A stretch of DNA of 32,922 nt from Bdellovibrionales bacterium (GTDB lineage Bacteria > Bdellovibrionota > Bdellovibrionia > Bdellovibrionales > Bdellovibrionaceae): NCBI GenBank assembly GCA_031370005.1, contig JANMPT010000051.1:1-32922 (forward strand). Direction: 5' to 3'. The position numbers and the translations under genes are program-made. Within the stretch, counting starts at the first letter, position 1; the number at the start of each line of letters is the position of its first letter. Below the pieces are notes generated by a model that saw only the letters and a program-made list of their open reading frames with translations, had not been told where the DNA came from and searched no databases. Below, piece after piece: positions 270 to 13,543 of the stretch.

Positions 270-294
270 AAAAAAGCCCCCTTCCAGGGGCTTT
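270..294 (-). terminator. Intrinsic terminator for the 323-3630 operon
   Basis: AAAGCCCC-cttcca-GGGGCTTT stem; A-run at 270-275 gives a U-tract on the minus strand. Confidence 0.7.
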
Positions 295-322: not shown

Positions 323-1012
323 CTATTTGCTAAGTTCAGATTCTGCCTGATTCATTTCTTGTTGGGCTAAAACATTTTTCCAAATTTTTTGACTGACTGG
401 GCCGGGAAGCCACTGCTGTATCTCGCTTGCCTTTAGAGGCTCCTGAGCCGTCCATTTGTAAAGCACTTCGGCCTTAACTCCCGCAAGGGTTTCACGGTCG
501 GCCATGCTAAGGTTTTCATTTTCAGTGCTAGGATCTTGAATAATTGATCTCAAAACTTCGGCAGCGGCTGTACTATTTTCACTGTTTAGCGCATCCAAAA
601 GAAAATCAACAGCAGCATTTTGTTGGTCCTCTGAGTTACTATATATACTCGGAGCTTTGAAAAGATCTTTGAGTCGCGTAATGAATGGCTCGTTTTTCAA
701 AAAATTCTGCTTTTGTAGTTTTTCTTTGTCAGTTAGAAAAATCTTTTTTCTAAGAAGACTATAGTCATTGAGTTCTTTTTTGTTTTCAAATGGTTTTAAT
801 TCAATGGTTGAAACTTCGTTTTGCGTTTGCGGCTCGAGCCTTATTACTGGCGGTGGAAGGGTGATCTCTTCATTTTTTTGCGATGTAAAGATTGGAAGCT
901 GCTTTGTCACTTTTTTAGAAGTTGTTAAAATTACTGATGGAGTCCTGAAGAACAGGACTCCTCCGAGTATAAAGACGGCGCCAAGCCCAAAGGCAACTTT
1001 TACAGTTCTCAT
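323..1012 (-). CDS. Hypothetical protein with N-terminal membrane anchor and helical C-terminal domain
   Basis: 229-aa ORF; hydrophobic segment VAFGLGAVFILGGVLFF; start overlaps the stop of the upstream gene (ATGA, 1009-1012). Confidence 0.8.
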   Translation of the reverse strand: MRTVKVAFGLGAVFILGGVLFFRTPSVILTTSKKVTKQLPIFTSQKNEEITLPPPVIRLEPQTQNEVSTIELKPFENKKELNDYSLLRKKIFLTDKEKLQKQNFLKNEPFITRLKDLFKAPSIYSNSEDQQNAAVDFLLDALNSENSTAAAEVLRSIIQDPSTENENLSMADRETLAGVKAEVLYKWTAQEPLKASEIQQWLPGPVSQKIWKNVLAQQEMNQAESELSK

Positions 1013-3630
1013 TTAGAGAATACCCCTTGAGTCATTTTATTTTTAAAGAGCCGTCGGTTTAAATTATCTGCACCTTGATTTTGGAAGAAGGCTGTTCCAT
1101 TTAAGTAACCATTTGTGACAACGATATTTTTCTTAATCTCTGAAGATTTCACGAAAAGGTTATAAACTTTACCGTAGTGGTTAATGTGATTTAAAGAAAT
1201 GATTGGGTCAAACTCACCACCCAAAACAACTAAGGCATCACCGACATGAAAGTCGCTTGCTTGCTTCATAAGTCCGTCGGAGGCCAATAGCGGATGGTTA
1301 GGGGTTAGCTTAAGTTGGCGACCTGATTTCATTTTGAACACAATAATGTCATGGTCGCCATCAAGAAGTTCGGTCACCCATTGATCTACTGCTGTTTTTT
1401 CGATGCTACGACTATTCAGGGATGAGTTGGTTTTTAAAGTTGCTACGTAACTATATTTTTTGGTCAAAGCTTCGATGAAGGTGACATATTTTGAACTTCC
1501 TTTTATATTTTCATCGGCCAGGATTTGTTGCTCTGGCGTTGCGCAGGAGGATACGCAGACCGCAGCGATATAGACAGTTGATGGAACTGTACAGTCTGCA
1601 GAGGCCGATTTCGGTGCAATCCATGCTTTTTCAGGTTTCGTTTCACGATTTAAGAAGGTTGGGTAAAGTAGTCTGCCTCGGGTGTTGTCGATCTCAACAT
1701 TTCCGCCGCCAATTTTTACACCGATATCAATAAATTTCCCCAAGAATTCTTTTACAACAGGAATTTGATCCTGACACTTTGCCATCCACTTAAAGCGACC
1801 AAGTGCCTCTGAGTTGCTTAAGCTGTCATGGGAGCAGCGATGAGCAACATAGTCACGGCAGTATTTTTCAGTTGCCCAAGCGCCATAGGCCACCTCTTGT
1901 TTTTCTTGCTGAACACTATGATCAGTACAAACAAAAGTCGTAGTGGTAATTTTATCACGAGTACTAGAAATGACGCCGATTTGGTTTGAAGGGCATTTTT
2001 CAGAGCTATTTGCTTCCTCTTGCACGACTGACTGTTCTTGTCGGCGAACGGCGGCAGGATTGCCGTCGCAGGCGCGCTCCTCCGTCTGGAAGTTTACGGC
2101 ACAACGCTCAGCTGGCGCTTCTGCACCTTTGTTGTCTTTGCAATGATAGATACGCGATTGTTTGCCGCCGCAGTCAGCAGAACAAGTCGTCCAGTTTTCT
2201 GTAGGAACATTCGAGTAAGTAGGACACAGGCCAAGAGTTTTTATATCACCCTGGTGGGTGTTTGAAGTGATAATTTGACCATTTTTACATTCTTGATCAG
2301 AGACCTGATTAAAGATACTGAAATAGCCTTGCTCTCCGTAAGCGCAGGTCAAGGCAACACTGGCCTCGCCTGTTATGATGTTGGCCTTAGATGTTCCGTT
2401 TGTGATTATGGAGCCGTCTGATAATTTACAGGATTGGTCTTGGCACAAGCCCTCATTTTTAAGTTCCTTCGACTTAGAGATCTCAACCCATTCTAAGCCC
2501 TCACCAACAAGCTTGCATTCCTCTACTGTGGTGTCGCGGTAAGACATGTTTTTAGTTCCATCAATACCACAAGCAACGGCCTCAGAGTAAATCTCACTTT
2601 GGCTAGAGCGTTTTTCTCCATATATAGAACAAGCCTTTGGATTTGTCGGAGTTGGCTCCGGGCTTGGGGAGGGGCTTGGCTCCGGTAGTGGCAAACCTAC
2701 GCTCAGATCATGGGTCAAAGTCACCCATGGAGTCGTTGAAGCTCCCACAAAGATTTGTACAGAAATTTGGTAGTCAGCAGCGGTTTGGTAAGTATGTTGG
2801 ACGCTTTGACCGCCGGAGGTGGCACCGTCTCCAAATCCCCACTGTACTGCTGAAATTTTTGAAGTTAAGCAAGAAGGAATATATAAAGATAATGAAACAG
2901 GAGTATCAACAATTGCTTCCGAGGCACCTGAGATTGTTAGATCTGATACGCACTCGAGGCCATCTTGAATCATTAAGACATTTACTTGGCGCACAAGAGT
3001 AATTTGTGTACGGTTCGAGTCAACCACGGTGGCAGAGATTTGATAAGTGCCGGGACGACTAAAGGTGTGATTGATTGTATTGATGTTATTTTCAAGAATT
3101 GAAGAGTCGCCAAAGTTCCAAGTCGCGGATTCAATAGTTAAACCTGTAGGAATCGCTAAACTATAGGATACGGGAGTCCCAACCATAGCAAGAGCAGGGC
3201 CAGAAATTACTGGTTGATCTGAAACGACCACGGTTTTAAGACTTATGCTAGAACTAGCAAGAGTGTTTTTTTCAATTTGGGCAACAACAACGTATTCGCC
3301 GGTCTTTTGGAAACTAGATTTAATAGCCGTACCGGTTTTTACAGACTGGCTATTGCTATCGCCAATTGTCCTCCAGCTAACTTTTTGAGTGGGTGAACAG
3401 CTAAGGTCGGTGTTTAATTGATAGGTTACAGAGGCACCTTTTTGAGCAACGGGCGCACCCTCAATTTGCAGAAGAGAAGGGTTAATAGGAGCTGTAGCAG
3501 TTTTACAGCTAGTCGCAAGGCCGTTGCTAGTAGAGTCTAATATGCCATCAGCACCAGTTGTCATCTTTTGGCAGCCGATAGTCCATAGGGCGAGTGTCAT
3601 AATCGAGAGCAATATTTTTTTTGAGTTCAT
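1009..3630 (-). CDS. Cys-rich lipoprotein with PKD domains, Pro-rich linker, thrombospondin type-1 repeat and C-terminal Hint domain
   Basis: Start moved to ATG 3630 (AAGGAG upstream). Signal MNSKKILLSIMTLALWTIG|C; PKD motifs WNFGD..HTFSRPGTYQI and WGFGDG..HTYQTAADYQI; TSP1 WTTCSADCGGKQSR (2068-2193); Hint motifs C-ATPEQ (1545), LTPNHPL, VYNLFV, NGYLN. Confidence 0.82.
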   Translation of the reverse strand: MNSKKILLSIMTLALWTIGCQKMTTGADGILDSTSNGLATSCKTATAPINPSLLQIEGAPVAQKGASVTYQLNTDLSCSPTQKVSWRTIGDSNSQSVKTGTAIKSSFQKTGEYVVVAQIEKNTLASSSISLKTVVVSDQPVISGPALAMVGTPVSYSLAIPTGLTIESATWNFGDSSILENNINTINHTFSRPGTYQISATVVDSNRTQITLVRQVNVLMIQDGLECVSDLTISGASEAIVDTPVSLSLYIPSCLTSKISAVQWGFGDGATSGGQSVQHTYQTAADYQISVQIFVGASTTPWVTLTHDLSVGLPLPEPSPSPSPEPTPTNPKACSIYGEKRSSQSEIYSEAVACGIDGTKNMSYRDTTVEECKLVGEGLEWVEISKSKELKNEGLCQDQSCKLSDGSIITNGTSKANIITGEASVALTCAYGEQGYFSIFNQVSDQECKNGQIITSNTHQGDIKTLGLCPTYSNVPTENWTTCSADCGGKQSRIYHCKDNKGAEAPAERCAVNFQTEERACDGNPAAVRRQEQSVVQEEANSSEKCPSNQIGVISSTRDKITTTTFVCTDHSVQQEKQEVAYGAWATEKYCRDYVAHRCSHDSLSNSEALGRFKWMAKCQDQIPVVKEFLGKFIDIGVKIGGGNVEIDNTRGRLLYPTFLNRETKPEKAWIAPKSASADCTVPSTVYIAAVCVSSCATPEQQILADENIKGSSKYVTFIEALTKKYSYVATLKTNSSLNSRSIEKTAVDQWVTELLDGDHDIIVFKMKSGRQLKLTPNHPLLASDGLMKQASDFHVGDALVVLGGEFDPIISLNHINHYGKVYNLFVKSSEIKKNIVVTNGYLNGTAFFQNQGADNLNRRLFKNKMTQGVFSK

Positions 3631-3678: not shown

Positions 3679-3731
3679 CAAATTCTCCTTAAAAGTGAAT
3701 CATCTTGATAGGGTAGCCTGTAGAGAATGAT

Positions 3732-3925: not shown

Positions 3926-4309
3926 ATGAAACAGTTTTTCGTTTTAGCGTTCGTCACGTTGATATCAATTGGCTCTTTTGCTAGCCAAACTCGCTTTACA
4001 TGTAAAGTTATGGGGCAAAATTTATATTTTCAATATAACGGAAGTGATCAAGTAACGGCGTATGACAAAACGCAGTCATGCGATATGAAGTTAGATTCTG
4101 AATATAATCCAACGACACTAAAAGGTTTTTTGAGATTTAAACCAACTGCCGGTGATTATTGTAAAGCAGAATTTGACCCGTTTTTTCAAACGGGAAGAGT
4201 AACGATTGATAAGAGCTTTTTGGACAGTCAGACTGGCAAAACAGTGGCTCGTTTAAGATTAACAGGCGATGGCCAAACGCGAGATACCAAAGTTTTCTGC
4301 CGCAAATAA
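3926..4309 (+). CDS. Small secreted hypothetical protein
   Basis: 127 aa; Sec signal MKQFFVLAFVTLISIGSFA; four Cys; AAGGA upstream; terminator downstream. Confidence 0.8.
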   Translation: MKQFFVLAFVTLISIGSFASQTRFTCKVMGQNLYFQYNGSDQVTAYDKTQSCDMKLDSEYNPTTLKGFLRFKPTAGDYCKAEFDPFFQTGRVTIDKSFLDSQTGKTVARLRLTGDGQTRDTKVFCRK

Positions 4310-4607: not shown

Positions 4608-6173
4608 GTGAAATATTCCACTTTATTTACTATTATTACGGCGACGATTATGACCATCAGTGGTTCCGAAGCTTTTGCTAACTACTGTGCAGCCATTCGT
4701 GGAAATGGCGAATTGATGCCCGCGCATTGGGGTGCAATGTCGAGCCTTGTTGAAGAACAGGGCTTGCCTTCAGCAATGGCCGGCGGCAGTTCTGCAAGCA
4801 TCACCATGTTTTTACTTGAGAGTCTTTCTTTAAATCCCATTCCTGTGAACAACAGCGAAAGAGCTCTTCTTATTAAATCTTTCCAAGGCTATTTTGAAGC
4901 CATGTCTCAAACTTCCGAGGGCAAGGCCATTCAGGCGCTGCTAGCGGATAGGGGAGCCTTTCAATCCATTATTAATTCCGCCCCGAAACTTGATGAAGCC
5001 TTGGCTCATCCTGCAAATAGGGCTTTGCTGCTAAAACATATGGATTCATTGCAGGTTTTGATGGCTTCGGAAGATCTTAGGGATATCATTAATCCTGAGT
5101 TCGTTCTCTACGTCAAAAGAACTATTGGTCTTGCTCGGAAAGATGATGATTCAATTCAAAATGTTTTAAATTATCGCACAGGCCAAATCAGTTATGCGCT
5201 TAAAAACTTTGGGAAGTTTGACGCTCAAACTGACAAAACCCTTTTTGTTAGACCGGGGCTTATTAATTTCACAAGACTCAGTCTCATTTTGGGCGAAATG
5301 GGCAATTTCTATGCGAACTATAACAACGAATCTGCCACGGGAAATCAAATCGGACAAAGGCTGCGAGATTTTTTAAATCTCTGTACTCCTGGTTCTAAGG
5401 ATATGTCTTGGAGAGAGCTCAACCAGCAACGGCCTGCATGCCGGCAGCTTCTTGGCAGCGCCGTTCTCATGTATCACAAAGCCAAGGCCTCTGGTAAAAG
5501 TCGCATTCATGAGCTCATTGGAAGCCATATCCCGTCTTTTGCAAGCACCTCTGTTCTCACCGGGTCCGCAGTGAAGCAATTCGCGCGCTTGGCGGCTGAC
5601 TATCAAACCACTACGGATACTCAGTTCGGAGATTTCAGCATTAACTTTAATGAACTTCGCTTTGGTTATTGGGGTTTTCAAACGGATCTCGACAATATTC
5701 AAAACACATTAAATTTCGTAGCTGAATACAAGAGGGATGCAAAGTCACAGAAGTTTTTGTCCCTTGGTCAAGCCCCTTGGCTTCGGATTCTTTCCACATC
5801 CCCGGCAGAGCCAGGGCTGTCTCGCATTGTCGCCCTTTCTCGCAGTCAACTTTCAGCCGGCGGCTGGAGTGATTTACACCCAGTGATTGTTCTGAAGGCT
5901 TATGGCTGTAACCAGATTATATATGTTACGCGAAAAGGCGAAGAGTCCAAGTTTGCTCAAGCAGTGTTTAAACGACTAACTAGGGCAGACGAGAAGACTT
6001 GGAGTCGCTTTTACGATATGGCAAATCCAAATAGTTCAATCATGCTCTCGCAAAAACTTGCGACTAAAATCAAGTGCACAGATTGGGATCATTTCAAGGT
6101 AAAAGATGACATCAATGGACTCATTGAAGATGCGATGAGGGCTCCGCTTCTTGATCCCCCGTATTGCAAATAG
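4608..6173 (+). CDS. Secreted divergent patatin-like hydrolase
   Basis: Signal peptide ending AFA; AIRGNGELMPAHWGAM..AMAGGSSAS follows the patatin pattern LSGGG..AHIGVL..IAGTSAG; SPAEPG and LSAGGWSDLHP sit at the SxAxP and DGG positions. Confidence 0.6.
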   Translation: MKYSTLFTIITATIMTISGSEAFANYCAAIRGNGELMPAHWGAMSSLVEEQGLPSAMAGGSSASITMFLLESLSLNPIPVNNSERALLIKSFQGYFEAMSQTSEGKAIQALLADRGAFQSIINSAPKLDEALAHPANRALLLKHMDSLQVLMASEDLRDIINPEFVLYVKRTIGLARKDDDSIQNVLNYRTGQISYALKNFGKFDAQTDKTLFVRPGLINFTRLSLILGEMGNFYANYNNESATGNQIGQRLRDFLNLCTPGSKDMSWRELNQQRPACRQLLGSAVLMYHKAKASGKSRIHELIGSHIPSFASTSVLTGSAVKQFARLAADYQTTTDTQFGDFSINFNELRFGYWGFQTDLDNIQNTLNFVAEYKRDAKSQKFLSLGQAPWLRILSTSPAEPGLSRIVALSRSQLSAGGWSDLHPVIVLKAYGCNQIIYVTRKGEESKFAQAVFKRLTRADEKTWSRFYDMANPNSSIMLSQKLATKIKCTDWDHFKVKDDINGLIEDAMRAPLLDPPYCK

Positions 6174-6182
6174 GGCTTCAAT

Positions 6183-8348
6183 TTACTTTACAAGTTTTAG
6201 CCACTCTTCAGGAAAGGCAACAGGGCCTTCCCTTTGATTGAGCCTTTTATAAAATACATAGTTACGCATAACGAGCTTAACGTAGGCTCTAGTTTCATCG
6301 TAGGGAATTTCTTCAATGAACTCCAGAGCGTCATCACGATAGCGGGTTTTCATCCAGCCACGAATGGCCCCGGCACTAGCGTTATATGCGGCAACCGCTA
6401 AAATATATTGTTGATCATATCGGGTGACTAAGTTTCTAAGTTCCTTAGTCCCAAGGGCCACGTTGATTTCGGGATCGTACAAGTCTTCGGCGTCATTATA
6501 AGGAACTCCGGAATTACGACTGAGCTCTTTGGCAATGCTAGGCAGAAGCTGCATCAACCCAAAAGCATCTACGGGGCTTCGCGCCCGAGGATTAAATGCG
6601 GACTCTTGGCGAATGATCGAGAACCCAAGCTCCGCAGGGATTTGCTCTGCTTGGGCGGCTTGAACAATCAGATCCTTGTAGTTACGTGGAAATAAAAGCT
6701 CGGGATGACTCTGCACCATTTTGTCTTTTACTTCCGGTGGTAAAGTATTGAAGGCGGCAAAGAGTGGAAGATACAGATTGGCTCTGGCGTAGCTGGTTAA
6801 AACAATTAACCAGGTGTCTTCATCCTTGCGACCTTTTTGGCGCAGATCTTGTGAAAGCTGATCGATGATTCTCTCAGAGAAAGAGTTTTCTCCTACTGCC
6901 ATTAACCACTCGGTTTGAAGAGTAGAAATTTGGCTCATTTCCTTGAGATTGAATAGGGAATAAGTAAAATCCTTTTCATTGCTTTTCATGGGAGTAAAGT
7001 TTTGGCCAAGCTCACGAACGGCGATCACGCCGTAGTAACCGATTCGATCATCTTTGATAATTTGTTGTAGAAGAGTTTTTGCCTCTTCTGGCTTGTTCAA
7101 ATTTTTAAGGGCGCGGGCCTGCCAGAAAAGGCTGCGCATTCTGTCAGAAGCATCTTTGGCATTTTGCGAGAACTCTTGAAGTTTAGCAGCGGCTTCCTCA
7201 TAGCGTTTCATTTTATAAAGAACCCAAGGGTGCAACCATAAAACGCGTTCACGAATGCTAGAGCTCGAAAGGGGCTCCTTGAGACTGGCCTCATAGTAGG
7301 TTGCAGCTTTGGCAAGATTTCCTTTTTCTTCAGCCATGCGACCCAGAACAAAATAGATCTCATCCAGGGAGTGAATGCTCTTAAGCTGTCTTTGGGCCTC
7401 TGTTAGGTATTTAAGAGCAAGATTCAGGCGGTCTTCTGTCCATAGGGTGCGCGCGAGCAGCACATAACTTTCATGAAGATGTCTGATATTTTGAGGGTCT
7501 TTTTTATTTTTTTTATAGTTTGCTTTACACGAATTCACCAACTGAGCTGTGGCATCAATATAAGCATTTTTATTTTGCGCCACCTTGTAGGTCATACGGA
7601 TATTTTTTAGGGCGAGAAACTTATCTTCTGCCGTGGCGTTGGAATTTTTTAGGATTTTTTTATATAGAATCAATGCCTTTTCAAACTCTCGGCGTTGACG
7701 AAAGTCCATGGCCGCCGTCGGAAGTTCTTTGAAAGTCAGATGCGGCTTTAAGCGAGGCGAAGAGCGAAAGAGCTGACCTTGCACGGCTTCAATTTCACTT
7801 TCAGACTTTAGATCTTCGGCAATTTTTAATGCTTCAAGAAGGTATTGTTCTTTTTTCTTTGCAATAGTTTCTTGGCGCGCCATCTCCTTGAGAGCCTCGA
7901 GGTCGTCCTTTTTGTCCTCTGTTTTGCGGGCGCTCTTTAGCAGAACATCCGCTAAGACATCTTGGCTCCACTTATAGGTCGTGCGATAGAGTTCGGGATT
8001 CAGGCTTGGAAGACTCGCGGTATCCACGCAGCTTTGGTGGGCACGAAGCAGGGCAATGTCCTTCAGTGGGAAGTGCGGTTCCTTTGCCAGTGCTGTGAAT
8101 TGTATGCAGGCGAAGTCAGGATTTTTCTCTAGGCTTAAAAGTCCTTGGCGGTATCTTTTCCACCAAGTTTGATTTTCAGTTAGCGCAGTCAAAGCATCGA
8201 GTTCTTTTAAATTATGATCACGATTTTGAAGGATGAAATCATAGCTCGGAGCTTGTGACGACGGGGTGGCGCGGATATCTTTTATGGACGTCGTGGCACA
8301 ACCCAAAAATAAATTGGCAAATACTATGGCGGCAATAGTAAAATTCAT
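6183..8348 (-). CDS. slt: Slt70-like lytic transglycosylase with TPR-like helical region, probable lipoprotein
   Basis: IIRQESAFNP, AFGLMQLLP, AAYNAS, FIEEIPYDETRAYVKLV; lipobox LFLGC. Confidence 0.9.
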   Translation of the reverse strand: MNFTIAAIVFANLFLGCATTSIKDIRATPSSQAPSYDFILQNRDHNLKELDALTALTENQTWWKRYRQGLLSLEKNPDFACIQFTALAKEPHFPLKDIALLRAHQSCVDTASLPSLNPELYRTTYKWSQDVLADVLLKSARKTEDKKDDLEALKEMARQETIAKKKEQYLLEALKIAEDLKSESEIEAVQGQLFRSSPRLKPHLTFKELPTAAMDFRQRREFEKALILYKKILKNSNATAEDKFLALKNIRMTYKVAQNKNAYIDATAQLVNSCKANYKKNKKDPQNIRHLHESYVLLARTLWTEDRLNLALKYLTEAQRQLKSIHSLDEIYFVLGRMAEEKGNLAKAATYYEASLKEPLSSSSIRERVLWLHPWVLYKMKRYEEAAAKLQEFSQNAKDASDRMRSLFWQARALKNLNKPEEAKTLLQQIIKDDRIGYYGVIAVRELGQNFTPMKSNEKDFTYSLFNLKEMSQISTLQTEWLMAVGENSFSERIIDQLSQDLRQKGRKDEDTWLIVLTSYARANLYLPLFAAFNTLPPEVKDKMVQSHPELLFPRNYKDLIVQAAQAEQIPAELGFSIIRQESAFNPRARSPVDAFGLMQLLPSIAKELSRNSGVPYNDAEDLYDPEINVALGTKELRNLVTRYDQQYILAVAAYNASAGAIRGWMKTRYRDDALEFIEEIPYDETRAYVKLVMRNYVFYKRLNQREGPVAFPEEWLKLVK

Positions 8349-9253
8349 TAGGCCACACGGCCTCTTTCGAGTGCCTTGATTCGATCTGCGAGGGCTGGGT
8401 GGGTCATAAATAAATCGGCAATGCTGCCTTTTCTCTCACGTCCTGAAATTTTCAAGGTGGCCATGCTATCATTGCTAGATGGCGGAGCCTCGTGAAGGCT
8501 CTGCAAGCGTTGAAGAGCTGCGATCATGTTTCCAGAGGAGGAAATCCTGGAGCTACCCGCATCGGCACGGAACTCGCGTTTGCGAGAGTAGAAATTCACG
8601 GCAATGGAGCCCAATAAAGTAAATGCGATATCACCGATAATCACACATAAAAAACGTACTATGCCACGATATTTCTCATCCACATTGCTAGCAATAACAT
8701 TGGCCAGCAGGCGAGAGAAGAACATCGCAAAGGCATTCACCACACCTTGAATTAAAGTCATAGTGACCATATCGCCATTGGCAATATGGGAAACTTCATG
8801 GCCAAGAACTCCTTCGATTTCTTTTTCACTCATTCTTCGCAGCAAGCCAGACGAAACAGCGACCAGAGAATTTTTTTTACTTGGCCCCGTAGCAAAAGCA
8901 TTTACATCATCTGATTCATAGATGCCAACCTCAGGTAGCTTCGGCAACTGGGCGCGACGAGCAAGCTCGTGAACTTTTTCAAGCAACTGACGAAGTTCTG
9001 GCTGGTTTGTGTTTGGATCGATTATTTTGACTCCGTAAAAATGTTTAGCGGCGAATTTTGACATAAGCAAAGATATGAAAGCGCCACCCATACCCCAAAC
9101 CAAACAAAATGCCATTAAAGTCGGCAGGTATTGGTTATAACCGGCAAGGTTTAGAAAATGGCTGATGATCGACCAAGCAATACCGATGGTCACCATCACA
9201 AGAACATTCGTAAGAATAAAATAACCGAAACGTTTAAAAAATTGCATGTTCAA
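8348..9253 (-). CDS. htpX: M48 family membrane zinc protease HtpX
   Basis: NAFATG, GVLGHEVSHIANGDMVTMTL, SRKREFRADAG, THPALADRI. Confidence 0.95.
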   Translation of the reverse strand: MNMQFFKRFGYFILTNVLVMVTIGIAWSIISHFLNLAGYNQYLPTLMAFCLVWGMGGAFISLLMSKFAAKHFYGVKIIDPNTNQPELRQLLEKVHELARRAQLPKLPEVGIYESDDVNAFATGPSKKNSLVAVSSGLLRRMSEKEIEGVLGHEVSHIANGDMVTMTLIQGVVNAFAMFFSRLLANVIASNVDEKYRGIVRFLCVIIGDIAFTLLGSIAVNFYSRKREFRADAGSSRISSSGNMIAALQRLQSLHEAPPSSNDSMATLKISGRERKGSIADLFMTHPALADRIKALERGRVA

Positions 9254-9313
9254 ATCTCCCTATAAATAACCTGAGCCCGTTCTCTATCCAATCTGGCATT
9301 TTCTGAAAACTTG

Positions 9314-11665
9314 TCAAGTCGTGACGGTCTCTTTTGGTTTTTTTGAGCCATTGCTGCTCTGGGTGGTGCTAAACTGGAACTTCAGCGCCGAGGCATCGAC
9401 CTCTACGCTCACGCGTCCTCCATCAACCAGGCGACCAAATAACAACTCGTCTACCAGGGGTTTTTTTAAGTGTTCATCCACTGTGCGCGCTAATGGCCGG
9501 GCTCCATAGACCTTGTCATAGCCTTTTTTCATGAGCCATTTCAAAACTTCTTGAGATACCTGGAAATCAACTTTTTTCTCAGCTAAAGTCATCTTCAACT
9601 CATCAACAAACTTAGTTGCAACTTTAAGGATAATGTCCTCTGGTAAATCTTTAAAACTAACCACTGCGTCCAAACGATTGATGAACTCAGGTGAGAAGGC
9701 TTTTTTAATAGCTTCCATGCTATGTGAACTGCGATTTTCATCAATGATACCGATAGAGCCTCGCGCGACCTCCATGGCTCCCGCATTGCTTGTCATGACA
9801 AAAATAACGTTTTTAAAGTCGGCCACTCGTCCATGGGAATCTGTCAGGCGTCCGGCATCCATCACTTGCAAAAGGGCATTTGTGATATCTGGATGGGCTT
9901 TTTCAAGCTCATCCAGGAGTAAGACCGCATAAGGGTGTTTGTTGACGGCTTCAGTCAGCAATCCGCCGTCTTCATAACCAACATATCCTGGAGGGGCTCC
10001 GATCAAGCGAGCCACGGCGTGCTTTTCCATATATTCACTCATATCAAAGCGATGGAAGTGGACTCCCAAAATATGGGCTAGCTGTTTACAGACTTCCGTT
10101 TTGCCAACGCCAGTGGGGCCTGTGAATAAATAACTGCCAATGGGTTTGTTGGGACGTGCCAGTCCACTGCGGGCTAGTTTAATGCTTGTCACCAAGCGAT
10201 CAATGGCTTCATCTTGGCCATAAATCAGCGCTTTAAGTTTTTTATCTAGATCGCGCAATTGCATTTTTTCATTTGAAGAAATATTAGCAATTGGCAGGCC
10301 AGTCATCTTCGCAATTACTTCCTCAATGGCGGGAATGTCGATAACGAGTTTGTCTAGCTCTTTGTCCTTGTTCTGTCCTATTTGGCGAAGGCGGAAGTAA
10401 GCGCCGGTTTCATCCATCACGTCGATTGCTTTATCTGGCAAGAGTTTTCCGTGAATATGTTTAATTGAAAGATCCACAGCGGCCTTCAGGGCCTCATCAG
10501 TATACTTGACGTTGTGAAACTCCTCATAGGATTTGCGCAGGCCTTTTAAAATTTCCACGCAGTCCGCAGGCGTGGGCTCTGTGACGTCGACACGTTGGAA
10601 CCGGCGATTGAGGGCGCGATCTTTTTCAAAATACTGGCGATACTCGCTGTGAGTGGTTGAACCTATGCAGCTGATGTCGCCACTTGCAAGGGCGGGCTTT
10701 AACAAATTAGAGGCATCCAAAGAGCCGCCACTTGTTGCTCCTGCGCCAACGATATTATGAATCTCATCTATAAAAAGAATCGCATTTGGACGTTTTTCAA
10801 TTTCTTTGATCACGGCTTTGAGACGGCCTTCGAAGTCGCCGCGGAATTTCGTTCCGGCTAGTAGAGTTCCGATATCCAAAGAATAGATCACTGCATTTTT
10901 TAATTTTTCGGGAACCTCGCCATGAACTATTTTTGTAGCCAAGCCTTCAGCAATGGCCGTTTTGCCGACGCCCGGCTCGCCAATAAGCAGGGGATTGTTT
11001 TTTGTTCTGCGGGAAAGAATCTGGACACAACGCTCAATCACATCCTCTCGTCCTACAAGAGGATCAATCTTGCCGGCCTTGGTCTTCTCGTTCAAATTGG
11101 TGCAGAAGCTTTCAAGGGGTGAGTTTTTGTTTTCATCCATGGGTTGCCCATCAATAGCCATTTGCTGTGTCGCAGGAGAAGCTGCGTCTTCATCCGCAGT
11201 GCCACTGACATCTTTGGCAATGCCATGAGAAAGGTAATTAATCACATCAAATTGGCTTAAGCCTTGCTCTGAAAGTGCGAATACAGCGTGGGAATCTTGT
11301 TCATAGAAAAATGCTACAAGCAAGCTGCCCTCATTGATTTGATTGCGGCCCGAGCTTTTGACTTGAATGGCGGCTCTTTGGATCAAGCGATGGCAGGCAA
11401 GTGTAAACTCCGGAGTCCAGCTTTCAAAGCCGCCATAAGAGTCCAATTGCTCTTGGGTGATACGGGGAACAGTTTTTTTTAAATAATCTTTAAGATCTAA
11501 CTTAAGCTTTTGTACATTGGCCCCACAGGATTGAAGAATCTCCACCATAGGCGGTGACTCTGTCAGCGCCAGCAGGATGTGTTCGAGAGTGACGAATTCG
11601 TGATTTGCTTGCTTGGCCATTTCTGTGGCCACTGAAAGTCGGCGTTCTAATTCACGTGTCATCAT
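9314..11665 (-). CDS. clpA: ATP-dependent Clp protease ATPase ClpA
   Basis: Clp N-domain, two AAA modules ([16 protein letters not shown]), no M-domain, SIG loop, adjacent to clpS. Confidence 0.95.
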
Positions 11666-11695
11666 AAATTTCTCCTCCGTAAGCGATTCCTCAGG

Positions 11696-12070
11696 TTATT
11701 CTTCTTCAAGCGTGCTTTTCAGCGGGTGCTCATTCATTTGTGCATACTGATTCACTTGCATAACTTTCATTTCTGCCACCTCAAGAGTAAACACACCCGC
11801 TACTCCTGCGCCCTTCTTATGAACATCGAGCATGATCTTCGTAGCCTCACTCTCAGTCTTACCGAAAAAGCGGTGAAGTACCAGCACAACGAATTCCATA
11901 GGAGTATAATCGTCATTCAGTAAAATCACCTTATACATTTTTGGTGTTTCTATTCGAGGAATAGTTTGAACCGAGGACTCGCCCTCAGTTGTCACAAAAG
12001 GAAAGTTCTTTGGTGTATTATTAGGTGGGTTGTTATTGTTCGATCCATTTCCGTTTATTTTACTCATCAT
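11696..12070 (-). CDS. clpS: Clp protease adaptor ClpS
   Basis: [37 protein letters not shown]. Confidence 0.95.
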
Positions 12071-12310
12071 GAGTTCGCCTCTATTCGTCTCTGTTATACT
12101 TGTTAGGCTTGCGGGCTAAAGTCCAGCGTGTTCGTTTAGACCAGGCTTAACAAATCTATCACTTTATTGTAGAGTGTATGTCTTGTTTTGAGAAGCAGTC
12201 TTGATTTTAAAAGCGCAATTTGGCACCATCTTAAAGTGATGCGCATTTAGCGTTAATAAGAAATTTGATAAGTGTTAAAGATAAAAAACAAACCATTTTG
12301 GAGGTTTATA

Positions 12311-12877
12311 ATGTTGGACGTACGATCGAATAAAAATCAAGCGGGTTTCTCGCTTGTAGAATTGATGGTGGTCGTTGCCATCATCGGTATCTTGGCGTCG
12401 CTCGCCATCCCATCAATCGGCAAGTACATGGCAAAAGCTCGCCAATCTGAGGCAAAGACCCAGCTATCGTCTTTGTACACGGCAGAGAAGGCGTTCTTTG
12501 CTGAGTATACGGCTTTTGATGAGAGATTTGCTGCTCTTGGTTATTCTCCAGAGGGAAACCTTAGATATAATGTTGGTTTTGGCGCGGCGGGTTTTGTTGC
12601 CACTATTGCTAACGGTTATACTATGCCAATTGGTTTACTTCCTGATAGGAGCACGATAACCTATTGCGGAGCTGCTGGAGCCGTTGTCAATGCATGTTCA
12701 ACTTTAAATGGTGCTACCAATGTGCCACCGCCAGCTTTACCGGCCGCAAATACTACTACGTCAAATACCTTTCTTGCAGGAGCTACTGCAATTATTCACG
12801 AAGGTGTTCCTGCCGGAGATTTTTGGACAATAACCAACAACAAAATTCTAGTAAATACTGCGAGCGGCATTCCCTAG
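12311..12877 (+). CDS. pilA: Type IVa pilin (probable major pilin)
   Basis: Prepilin site QAG|FSLVELMVVVAIIGIL with E5; GGAGG RBS before ATG 12311; two Cys in variable domain. Confidence 0.85.
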   Translation: MLDVRSNKNQAGFSLVELMVVVAIIGILASLAIPSIGKYMAKARQSEAKTQLSSLYTAEKAFFAEYTAFDERFAALGYSPEGNLRYNVGFGAAGFVATIANGYTMPIGLLPDRSTITYCGAAGAVVNACSTLNGATNVPPPALPAANTTTSNTFLAGATAIIHEGVPAGDFWTITNNKILVNTASGIP

Positions 12878-12883
12878 GCTAGT

Positions 12884-13543
12884 ATGACTGAGTCAGTTTA
12901 TTTACAAAAAAACCCAAGCTTTACTTTGCTTGGGTTTTTTTCTTTTCTATTAGTCATATTTTCGCAGATATATGCGAGCAAAGGTCTTTTGGAAAAGCCT
13001 CGGGATCTTCTGGCTCCCCCGGTTGGGATTGAGCATTTCACTTTTGGCCACAGGGATGTAACCGCGGACGTTTTATGGATTCGCGCCATTCAGGATTTTG
13101 ATTACTGTGATCAAGAAATTGCTAAAAATCTTTGTGTGGGTAAGGGTTGGCTTTATCGCATGTTGAATGCAATTACCGACTTGTCTCCAAAGTTTCGAAT
13201 GCCTTACGCCACAGGGGCTATTGCATTGAGTGTGATGGTTTCCGATGTTGACGGAGCCGCCCGTATTTTTGACAAGGGAGTAGCGCAATTCCCGAATGAT
13301 TGGCCCATTCTTTATCGCGCAGCTTATCACTACCTCTATGAGGTAAAAGATAAAAAAAGAGCTGCTGACCTATTTGTTCGCGCAGGAAGAAATGGCGCAC
13401 CTTCTTGGGTTTATTCCTTGGCAGGAGGTCTTTATAACGAATCCAATGAGCGAGTCTCCGCGGACGCCATCCTTCTAGAAATGATCAAAACCGAAGTCGA
13501 CCCAACAATCATCAAACGCCTCCAAGAAAAACTCAAAAAATAA
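12884..13543 (+). CDS. Pilin-associated membrane-anchored TPR-like protein
   Basis: N-terminal TM; ADVLWIRAIQ..TDLSPKF..FDKGVAQFPNDW resembles TPR proteins found next to pilin genes in deltaproteobacteria-like taxa. Confidence 0.65.
   Translation: MTESVYLQKNPSFTLLGFFSFLLVIFSQIYASKGLLEKPRDLLAPPVGIEHFTFGHRDVTADVLWIRAIQDFDYCDQEIAKNLCVGKGWLYRMLNAITDLSPKFRMPYATGAIALSVMVSDVDGAARIFDKGVAQFPNDWPILYRAAYHYLYEVKDKKRAADLFVRAGRNGAPSWVYSLAGGLYNESNERVSADAILLEMIKTEVDPTIIKRLQEKLKK

Follow-up and report, generated by a model that had tools for sequence, protein, structure and literature searches.

A Bd2400-type lipoprotein with a C-terminal Hint domain and its linked downstream gene in a Bdellovibrionales bacterium

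What does a C-terminal, non-splicing Hint domain do for a bacterial protein once it has made its cut? The question is raised by a contig of 32,922 nucleotides from a Bdellovibrionales bacterium (JANMPT010000051.1, assembly GCA_031370005.1; hereafter the window), in which one gene encodes an 873-residue lipoprotein that ends in such a domain. An earlier note on this DNA, made from the sequence alone, proposed a self-cleaving and possibly adhesive surface protein; it missed that the family is known and that a second gene is coupled to the first one downstream. The protein is not new, being a further member of a family known since 2009; what is new is its genomic context, which makes the old question testable. 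We favour, at a probability of roughly 55%, a regulated single self-cleavage with a dedicated, membrane-anchored partner protein as chaperone or switch.

Orthology with Bd2400 and the Hint domain

The whole-protein search gave 209 matches among 8000 scored candidates, the closest named locus being that of a Pseudobdellovibrionaceae metagenome-assembled genome (78% identity). CAE80217.1 of B. bacteriovorus HD100 is 45% identical to the 873-residue protein from end to end. Primers for quantitative PCR of bd2400 are published with a stated product of 121 bp (PMC11271337; here and below, papers cited by PMC number are quoted from the parts accessible to us). The peptides encoded by both primers occur in CAE80217.1 at a computed spacing of 122 bp, that is, at the right distance, and therefore CAE80217.1 is Bd2400. 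Judged by its sequence, our protein is a full-length orthologue of Bd2400 and belongs to the family of C-type bacterial intein-like (BIL) domains, below BIL-C. Dori-Bachash and colleagues reportedly described this domain type in 2009 as new in B. bacteriovorus, with Bd2400 as model protein; Bd2400 is said to be secreted and processed, and its BIL to cleave N-terminally in vitro. The architecture of Bd2400 we take to be a signal peptide, two PKD domains and a C-terminal BIL. The family occurs in predatory lineages: of the 53 related genome loci surveyed, 52 carry names from the Bdellovibrionota and the remaining one is labelled ‘Proteobacteria bacterium’.

The Hint domain is numbered here from its first residue (Cys1 = Cys696, Thr81 = Thr776, His84 = His779, Gly150 = Gly845, Thr151 = Thr846). 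Its start at the Cys encoded at nucleotide 1545, the motifs TPNH (aa 776-779), VYNL (aa 822-825) and NGYLNGT (aa 840-846), and the tail of exactly 27 residues, all pointed out in the earlier note, are present in the translation. Modelling confirmed the predicted fold: an AlphaFold2 model of aa 586-873, built on a 98-row alignment, has a predicted local distance difference test score (pLDDT) of 83.7 and matches the DnaB intein in Foldseek at E 1.4e-9 (range E 1e-9 to 1e-6 across intein, BIL and Hedgehog structures), while VIA gives Z scores of 17.5 for the intein, 17.0 for the BIL and 16.5 for Hedgehog (rmsd, the root-mean-square deviation, about 2.2 Å; 137 aligned residues). In the VIA register Cys696 falls on residue 1 and Thr846 on the intein's final residue, so that Gly845-Thr846 stand where inteins have His-Asn. 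As the epithet ‘Hedgehog-like’ of the earlier note implies, TxxH is kept and His-Asn is absent; structurally, Hedgehog is not a nearer match than inteins or other BILs, the Z scores being tied within 1. Profile searches against Hint families, also proposed there, yield a visible match to Intein_splicing (Pfam, E 2e-4) that nevertheless stays below cut-off, as do the NCBIfam intein models.

Conservation was read from a close set of 120 listed homologues, the query included, and from a distant set for which aa 661-873 retrieved 550 representatives (50% identity level); the analysis took in the best 150 of these. Cys1, Thr81, His84, Asn129, Gly150, Ser/Thr151 and Asn163 are each kept in 120/120 close homologues and Gln155 in 119; among the 150 listed representatives the counts are 144 for Cys1 (the misses are three fragments without the position, two Gly and one Ser), 150 for Thr81, 150 for His84, 149 for Asn129, 148 for Gly150, 145 for Ser/Thr151 and 148 for Gln155. 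The catalytic Cys and TxxH, whose loss among homologues had been named as grounds for rejecting the earlier proposal, are thus kept throughout the close set and in 144 to 150 of the 150 representatives. Position 59 is more variable (Glu/Asp in 99, Ser in 48 of the 150), and His-Asn occurs in block G of none of 151 sequences. The tail spans 26-29 residues after Gly150 in 124 of the 151, with a helical hydrophobic moment of up to 0.67. At the level of sequence, such conservation is not chance. The residues and the modelled fold support a predicted cut between Ser695 and Cys696 by a non-splicing domain; this part of the earlier proposal stands, though such cleavage had reportedly already been described for Bd2400.

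The domain just before the Hint (aa 598-695) is taken, from its position, to be PPS-1, a name used in connection with C-type BILs (PMC9185962); this four-Cys domain is shared with Bd2400. Its Cys residues 599, 619, 680 and 692 are each present in 120/120 listed close homologues and, where distant representatives have a residue there, in 93/98, 87/98, 97/107 and 110/110, respectively; all four are also kept in seven of eight stand-alone PPS-1 proteins, which carry no Hint. The pattern suggests two internal disulfides that would leave Cys696 free. Within the joint PPS-1/Hint model no fold match to PPS-1 was found (Z 2.9 or less).

The partner gene and the wider operons

The start codon of the downstream gene overlaps the stop codon of the lipoprotein gene, and a terminator-like hairpin follows it (Table 1); the number of terminator-like sites in the region is not above that in shuffled sequence, and a promoter scan gave chance level only. 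The two genes likely form a two-gene operon closed by the hairpin. The partner protein consists of a hydrophobic N-terminal segment, the predicted membrane anchor (found in 49 of 50 homologues), a variable linker and an all-alpha domain at about aa 75-229, modelled with a pLDDT of 92.5. Structure searches with this model returned nothing beyond generic helical-repeat matches, the best values being E 0.037 in Foldseek and Z 8.8 at rmsd 5.4 in VIA; Atlas scores stayed below 0.9. The homologue in strain HD100, CAE80216.1, is uncharacterised and is taken to be Bd2399 from its adjacent accession.

The linkage of the two genes is tight. A partner homologue lies directly downstream in 51 of the 53 related genome loci, both misses being at contig ends. 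A partner profile run over 301 genomes of the phylum gave 31 matches in 30 genomes, all 30 with a BIL-C gene, and all 31 matches lie on the same strand and within 3 kb downstream of that gene; the partner profile picked the true partner alone from 14,379 reading frames of its own genome. Within the family, 38 other genomes were searched: BIL-C and partner occur together in 18, and 20 have neither. That the distant partners are true homologues is borne out by hhalign (probability 89%, E 2e-6). In 30 distant loci the partner was sought with a broader profile, which is circular here, as these loci supplied most of it; the same strand is occupied in 22 of the 30 and the opposite strand in one. For metagenome loci, fetched separately, the count was made on those 20 of 62 that extend at least 3.2 kb downstream (42 were left out), and 17 of the 20 carry the partner on the same strand; two of the 20 seem to be duplicates, and there may be overlap in organisms with the genome loci.

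The partner also adjoins short BIL-C genes without PKD domains, and it was not found in any of four fetched stretches that hold a stand-alone PPS-1 with no Hint nearby; accordingly, it tracks the Hint domain and not the other parts of the protein. In P0181, an 881-residue open reading frame on a 3.8-kb metagenome contig, both are fused in the order PKD, PPS-1, Hint, tail and partner domain: the last is joined behind the tail without anchor or linker, and Cys1 of the Hint is replaced by Gly. The same replacement is seen in P0169, an unfused BIL-C member with a long His/Asp-rich insertion within its Hint. A search of longer proteins for further partner fusions found none but is uninformative, since P0181 itself was missed.

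Most distant BIL-C members are short (about 290-470 aa) and consist of signal peptide, PPS-1, Hint and tail. In a midpoint-rooted Hint tree the 35 PKD-bearing representatives fall inside one 48-member clade (FastTree support 0.98). The short genes are often followed by a subtilase-like lipoprotein (Pfam S8), the partner, and an exported protein of 400-980 aa, whose long form ends in leucine-rich repeats (LRR) and Kelch repeats. In one of these exported proteins the first 430 aa are MACPF/CDC-like, with an Atlas feature score of 0.90 for a cluster of which about 10% carry MACPF or Thiol_cytolysin, and with TM of about 0.6 to stonustoxin-type MACPF models, below the bar for naming a family; a relative matches Thiol_cytolysin weakly (E 0.046). 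This is a lead, not a family assignment. MACPF-like genes lie on the same strand in 17 of the 30 distant genome loci, again a circular count, and S8-like genes likewise in 17; in the 20 long metagenome loci the counts are 12 and eight, respectively. A G(T/S)SxA(A/S)P-type motif is found in 7 of 15 subtilase-like neighbours, the His and Asp patterns in none of the 15. A recurrent operon of short BIL-C, subtilase-like, partner and MACPF-like genes is seen in distant Bdellovibrionota at L056, L059, L060, L067-L069, L071, L073, L074 and L078-L080, the subtilase-like lipoprotein being absent in L059 and L078. Such linkage suggests that Bdellovibrionota possess an as yet undescribed module for envelope attack or competition. 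No MACPF-like neighbour is found in any of 51 Bd2400-type loci, nor a MACPF-like homologue in the 99.8%-complete genome to which the window belongs, and the system in the window is therefore the two-gene form.

Two loci from the Bdellovibrio genus group (L086:550-5084 and L087:1-3817) have two or three tandem stand-alone PPS-1 genes followed by two MACPF/CDC-like genes, one of these with LRRs; the PPS-1 proteins (146-164 aa) have a Pro-rich end with a CxxxxC-like motif. Neither Hint nor partner is present in these fetched stretches, so that here PPS-1 itself is linked to MACPF-like proteins. Two further loci with short BIL-C and partner (L057, L061) and one with a PPS-1 lipoprotein alone (L089) lie between genes for an FtsK/SpoIIIE ATPase and a phage-type integrase, a setting that suggests that these genes travel on an integrative element. 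With a single short member as query, a metagenome scan gave no matches. In the literature searched, which comprised neither subscription papers nor the 2009 BIL-C and 2008 proteome papers, we found no description of the partner or of its MACPF/subtilase context.

What the Hint domain may do after its cut

In the reading that we favour, the protein would be exported and lipidated at Cys20, and the 24 non-catalytic Cys residues other than Cys20 (26 in the whole protein, Cys696 included) would pair. An N-to-S acyl shift at Cys696, aided by Thr81 and His84, would follow; the residues and the modelled fold are those observed above, and autocleavage is reported for Bd2400. Because Gly-Thr takes the place of His-Asn, neither Asn cyclisation nor ligation of a C-extein is expected; the acyl group may pass via Thr846 and would most simply be hydrolysed. 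The products would be a lipid-anchored PKD/Cys-rich/PPS-1 fragment of 72 kDa and a Hint-plus-tail piece of 20 kDa. To go by gene linkage, the partner, which would be tethered to the inner membrane and expose its helical domain to the periplasm, may bind Hint and tail and so time the cut. As support for this reading we count the orthology, the catalytic residues, the fold and register of the Hint, the partner linkage and the P0181 fusion, and in addition the shared response of both genes to prey entry, when they fall to about 0.6-fold (Bd2400 0.62/0.54, Bd2399 0.64/0.58; microarray supplement, PMC2797640).

Several observations weigh against it. During prey-independent growth the two genes part (Bd2400 1.12/1.05 vs Bd2399 0.61/0.47, PMC2797640). 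No partner was detected at 7 of the 30 distant BIL-C loci (two with less than 1.7 kb downstream, four among the most divergent) or near 3 of the 20 long metagenome loci, and related genomes are non-independent observations. Cleavage and partner binding are here predictions from sequence, model and gene linkage. The conserved Ser/Thr151, Gln155 and tail point to a possible second chemical step, and it is difficult to see why proteins of roughly 300 aa, with only signal peptide, PPS-1 and Hint, should carry a Hint that does no more than remove itself.

Such a second step is the core of a tentative alternative, a Hedgehog-like ligase: a lipid or other envelope nucleophile would take over the thioester, perhaps by way of Ser/Thr151, with the amphipathic tail selecting the acceptor and the partner presenting it, and PPS-1 would gain a C-terminal anchor. 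Hedgehog Cys143 forms a branched intermediate (PMC12054796) and, counted by eye on the sequence printed there, has the offset of position 151, which is found six residues past the Asn of block G; Ser/Thr151 is kept in 120/120 close and 145/150 representative sequences listed, and the steady tail length (124/151), Gln155 (148/150) and the hydrophobic moment of up to 0.67 fit a recognition segment of this kind. Most of the 91 short members have a hydrophobic N-terminus and no lipobox (78 are of the former kind, and 8 are lipobox-like), and two of the stand-alone PPS-1 proteins resemble lipoproteins, which would fit a Hint able to take the place of an N-terminal anchor. Five others, however, have neither Hint nor evident lipobox; the 873-residue protein already has a lipobox, the literature searched reports no adduct, the acidic residue near the Hedgehog Asp46 position is only partly kept (position 59, in an inferred register), and with its 27 residues the tail falls far short of the length of the sterol-recognition region in Hedgehog (sequence in PMC12054796). 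It is unlikely that the partner is itself the covalent acceptor, one of its lysines attacking the thioester and tethering the N-terminal fragment to the inner membrane: among its nucleophilic side chains, Lys90 (45 of 50 close partners) and Lys180 (48 of 50) are kept best, and the loss of Cys1 in P0181 would be expected if fusion had made ligation redundant, but P0181 is a single metagenome reading frame, the unfused P0169 has lost Cys1 too, and neither Lys is invariant among 21 distant partners (Lys90 in 16; Lys180 in 13, with Arg in five). The chances are poorer still that the partner is functionally unrelated to the Hint and a mere operon passenger, for instance an immunity protein for the MACPF/CDC-like protein. 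Distant operons do usually place it directly before the MACPF/CDC-like gene; yet it is kept in Bd2400-type loci, none of whose 51 members has a MACPF-like neighbour, and in a genome without a MACPF-like homologue, and the MACPF-like genes beside stand-alone PPS-1 in L086 and L087 have no partner in the fetched stretches.

The boldest suggestion of the earlier note, a covalent adhesin needed for predation whose thioester reacts with the prey envelope, fares no better and is very improbable. PKD domains, lipobox and the occurrence of the family in Bdellovibrionota are in keeping with it, and PMC2797640 counts Bd2400 among the membrane-protein genes of the attack phase that fall when prey is entered. 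In published transposon sequencing (Tn-seq) of strain 109J, where a predation defect is set at W <0.1, the orthologue EP01_RS08110, assigned to Bd2400 by name and by the flanking response regulator and RsbU genes, loses no fitness under four prey conditions (W 2.16, 1.12, 1.96, 1.57), values within or near the range of most neighbour genes; the presumed partner is noisy (W 1.78, 0.74, 1.70, 1.91; PMC6561027). Both are lowest on V. cholerae biofilm (1.12, and 0.74 +/- 0.50 for the partner; PMC6561027), and pooled Tn-seq can mask effects of shared products, which leaves room for a conditional role. The gene is present in only 18 of the 38 other family genomes searched and was not found in 20, and Bd2400 is reported absent from a soil Bdellovibrio isolate (PMC5941755). 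With no Tn-seq defect and a patchy presence in relatives, the gene is accessory under these conditions, and its product is probably an accessory surface protein and not a core predation factor. The response regulator gene adjoining the 109J orthologue, EP01_RS08115, shows a fitness loss on planktonic prey (W 0.41 and 0.27) that is not seen on biofilms (0.95 and 0.99; PMC6561027).

The broadest scheme that we can draw, which we regard as doubtful, would make PPS-1/BIL-C and partner a widespread two-component, Hedgehog-like ligation system in predatory bacteria: the small, disulfide-bonded PPS-1 would be moved through a branched ester at Ser/Thr151 onto an envelope lipid presented by tail and partner, PPS-1 so anchored would, in the commoner short form, dock a co-encoded MACPF/CDC-like pore former matured by the subtilase-like lipoprotein, and the Bd2400 type would be derived, with the pore former lost and PKD adhesin domains acquired. 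Specific handles are available in a culturable predator: the uncharacterised Bd2399, Ser/Thr151 at the Hedgehog Cys143 offset, and Gln155 in the tail.

Gene layout, neighbours and known systems

Gene, lipobox, PKD domains, Pro-rich linker and Cys-rich region were located correctly in the earlier note, each being found in the translated reading frame or by Pfam (Table 1). The PKD models PF18911 (E 4e-19) and PF00801 (E 1.4e-16) match two stretches each, above the Pfam cut-off, while the TSP1-like stretch is a Pfam match below cut-off. A strict lipobox-like pattern is present in 96 of 107 homologues of at least 850 aa. The upstream TTG at 3681 was rejected as start codon in favour of the ATG at 3630, which is preceded by a ribosome-binding site (AAGGAG) and lines up with the start of Bd2400. 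The lipoprotein gene is single-copy in its genome.

Table 1. Features of the lipoprotein and partner genes (positions in the window)
Feature	Position	Strand	Remarks
BIL-C lipoprotein gene	1009..3630	-	ATG 3630 to TGA 1009, 873 aa; Bd2400-type
Signal peptide and lipobox WTIG/C20	3571..3630	-	Sequence pattern; Cys20 is the predicted lipidation site
Two PKD domains, about aa 139-311	2698..3216	-	Pfam PF18911 and PF00801; outer limits estimated
Pro-rich linker, aa 316-328	2647..2685	-	Translated sequence
Cys-rich spacer, about aa 334-597	1840..2631	-	TSP1-like stretch (aa 478-521) inside
Conserved domain before Hint, aa 598-695, taken as PPS-1	1546..1839	-	Cys 599, 619, 680, 692
Hint domain, Cys696-Thr846	1093..1545	-	Cys1, Thr81-x-x-His84, block F Asn129, Gly150-Thr151
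27-aa tail, predicted amphipathic helix	1012..1092	-	Conserved Gln155, Asn163, Arg/Lys168
Partner gene, 229 aa	323..1012	-	Start overlaps upstream stop (ATGA); no Pfam/NCBIfam family
Intrinsic-terminator-like hairpin and T run directly 3' of partner gene	273..294	-	Consensus match only

Divergent from the lipoprotein gene lies a gene for a 127-residue protein with a signal-peptide-like start (3926-4309, plus strand), which has no family match and is not conserved in related loci. It is followed by a gene for an exported protein of 521 aa (4608-6173, plus strand) without Pfam or NCBIfam match; its GGSS(A)S motif and a WSDLHP stretch recall, on our assumption, a patatin-like phospholipase. Further on are a run of clpS, clpA, M48 peptidase and TPR/SLT lytic transglycosylase genes (6183-12070, minus strand) and a type IV pilin gene with, behind it, an unannotated gene of 219 aa (12272-13543, plus strand). 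Housekeeping genes make up most of what remains of the window (dnaJ, dnaK, acetyl-CoA synthetase, two Dus, fumarase and UvrD).

Among known systems Bd2400 is the nearest. It shares with our protein the whole architecture at 45% identity, an identical junction (VCVSS/CATPEQQI, the slash marking the predicted cut), TxNH, GKVYN and NGYLNG(S/T)AFFQN, and a homologous downstream partner, CAE80216.1; it differs in length (913 vs 873 aa), in a Cys-rich segment of about 51 aa present only in Bd2400, and in its other flanking genes, and we found no mechanistic distinction between the two. Inteins and the A-type BIL/PT-HINT domains have the Hint fold, Cys1 and the block B TxxH in common with BIL-C, whereas BIL-C lacks His-Asn and a C-extein and has Asn in place of the block F Asp. 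Lipase-specific foldases are likewise encoded by a coupled downstream gene and consist of an N-terminal membrane anchor, a variable linker and an all-alpha periplasmic domain; the partner resembles them in layout alone, no sequence or fold match having appeared, and we regard this as analogy, not membership. B-type BILs, compared here by the description in a review, resemble BIL-C in lacking His-Asn and cleaving N-terminally, but they are inserted in hypervariable regions, cleave C-terminally as well and have no PPS-1. From the Hog domain of Hedgehog, BIL-C is set apart by its shorter tail, an Asp46 equivalent that is not clearly kept, 15% identity, and its setting in a bacterial lipoprotein with a dedicated partner gene. 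Both have in common a C-terminal Hint with Cys1 and TxxH, no His-Asn and a conserved tail (Z 16.5), and possibly also a nucleophile that ends block G, Cys143 in the one and Ser/Thr151 in the other (offset by eye). To judge from these residues the BIL-C Hint would work like Hedgehog in its first step, a second step being unproven; a bacterial Hint that ligates an adduct, if true, would be relevant to how Hedgehog lipidation arose and could serve as a protein-ligation tool.

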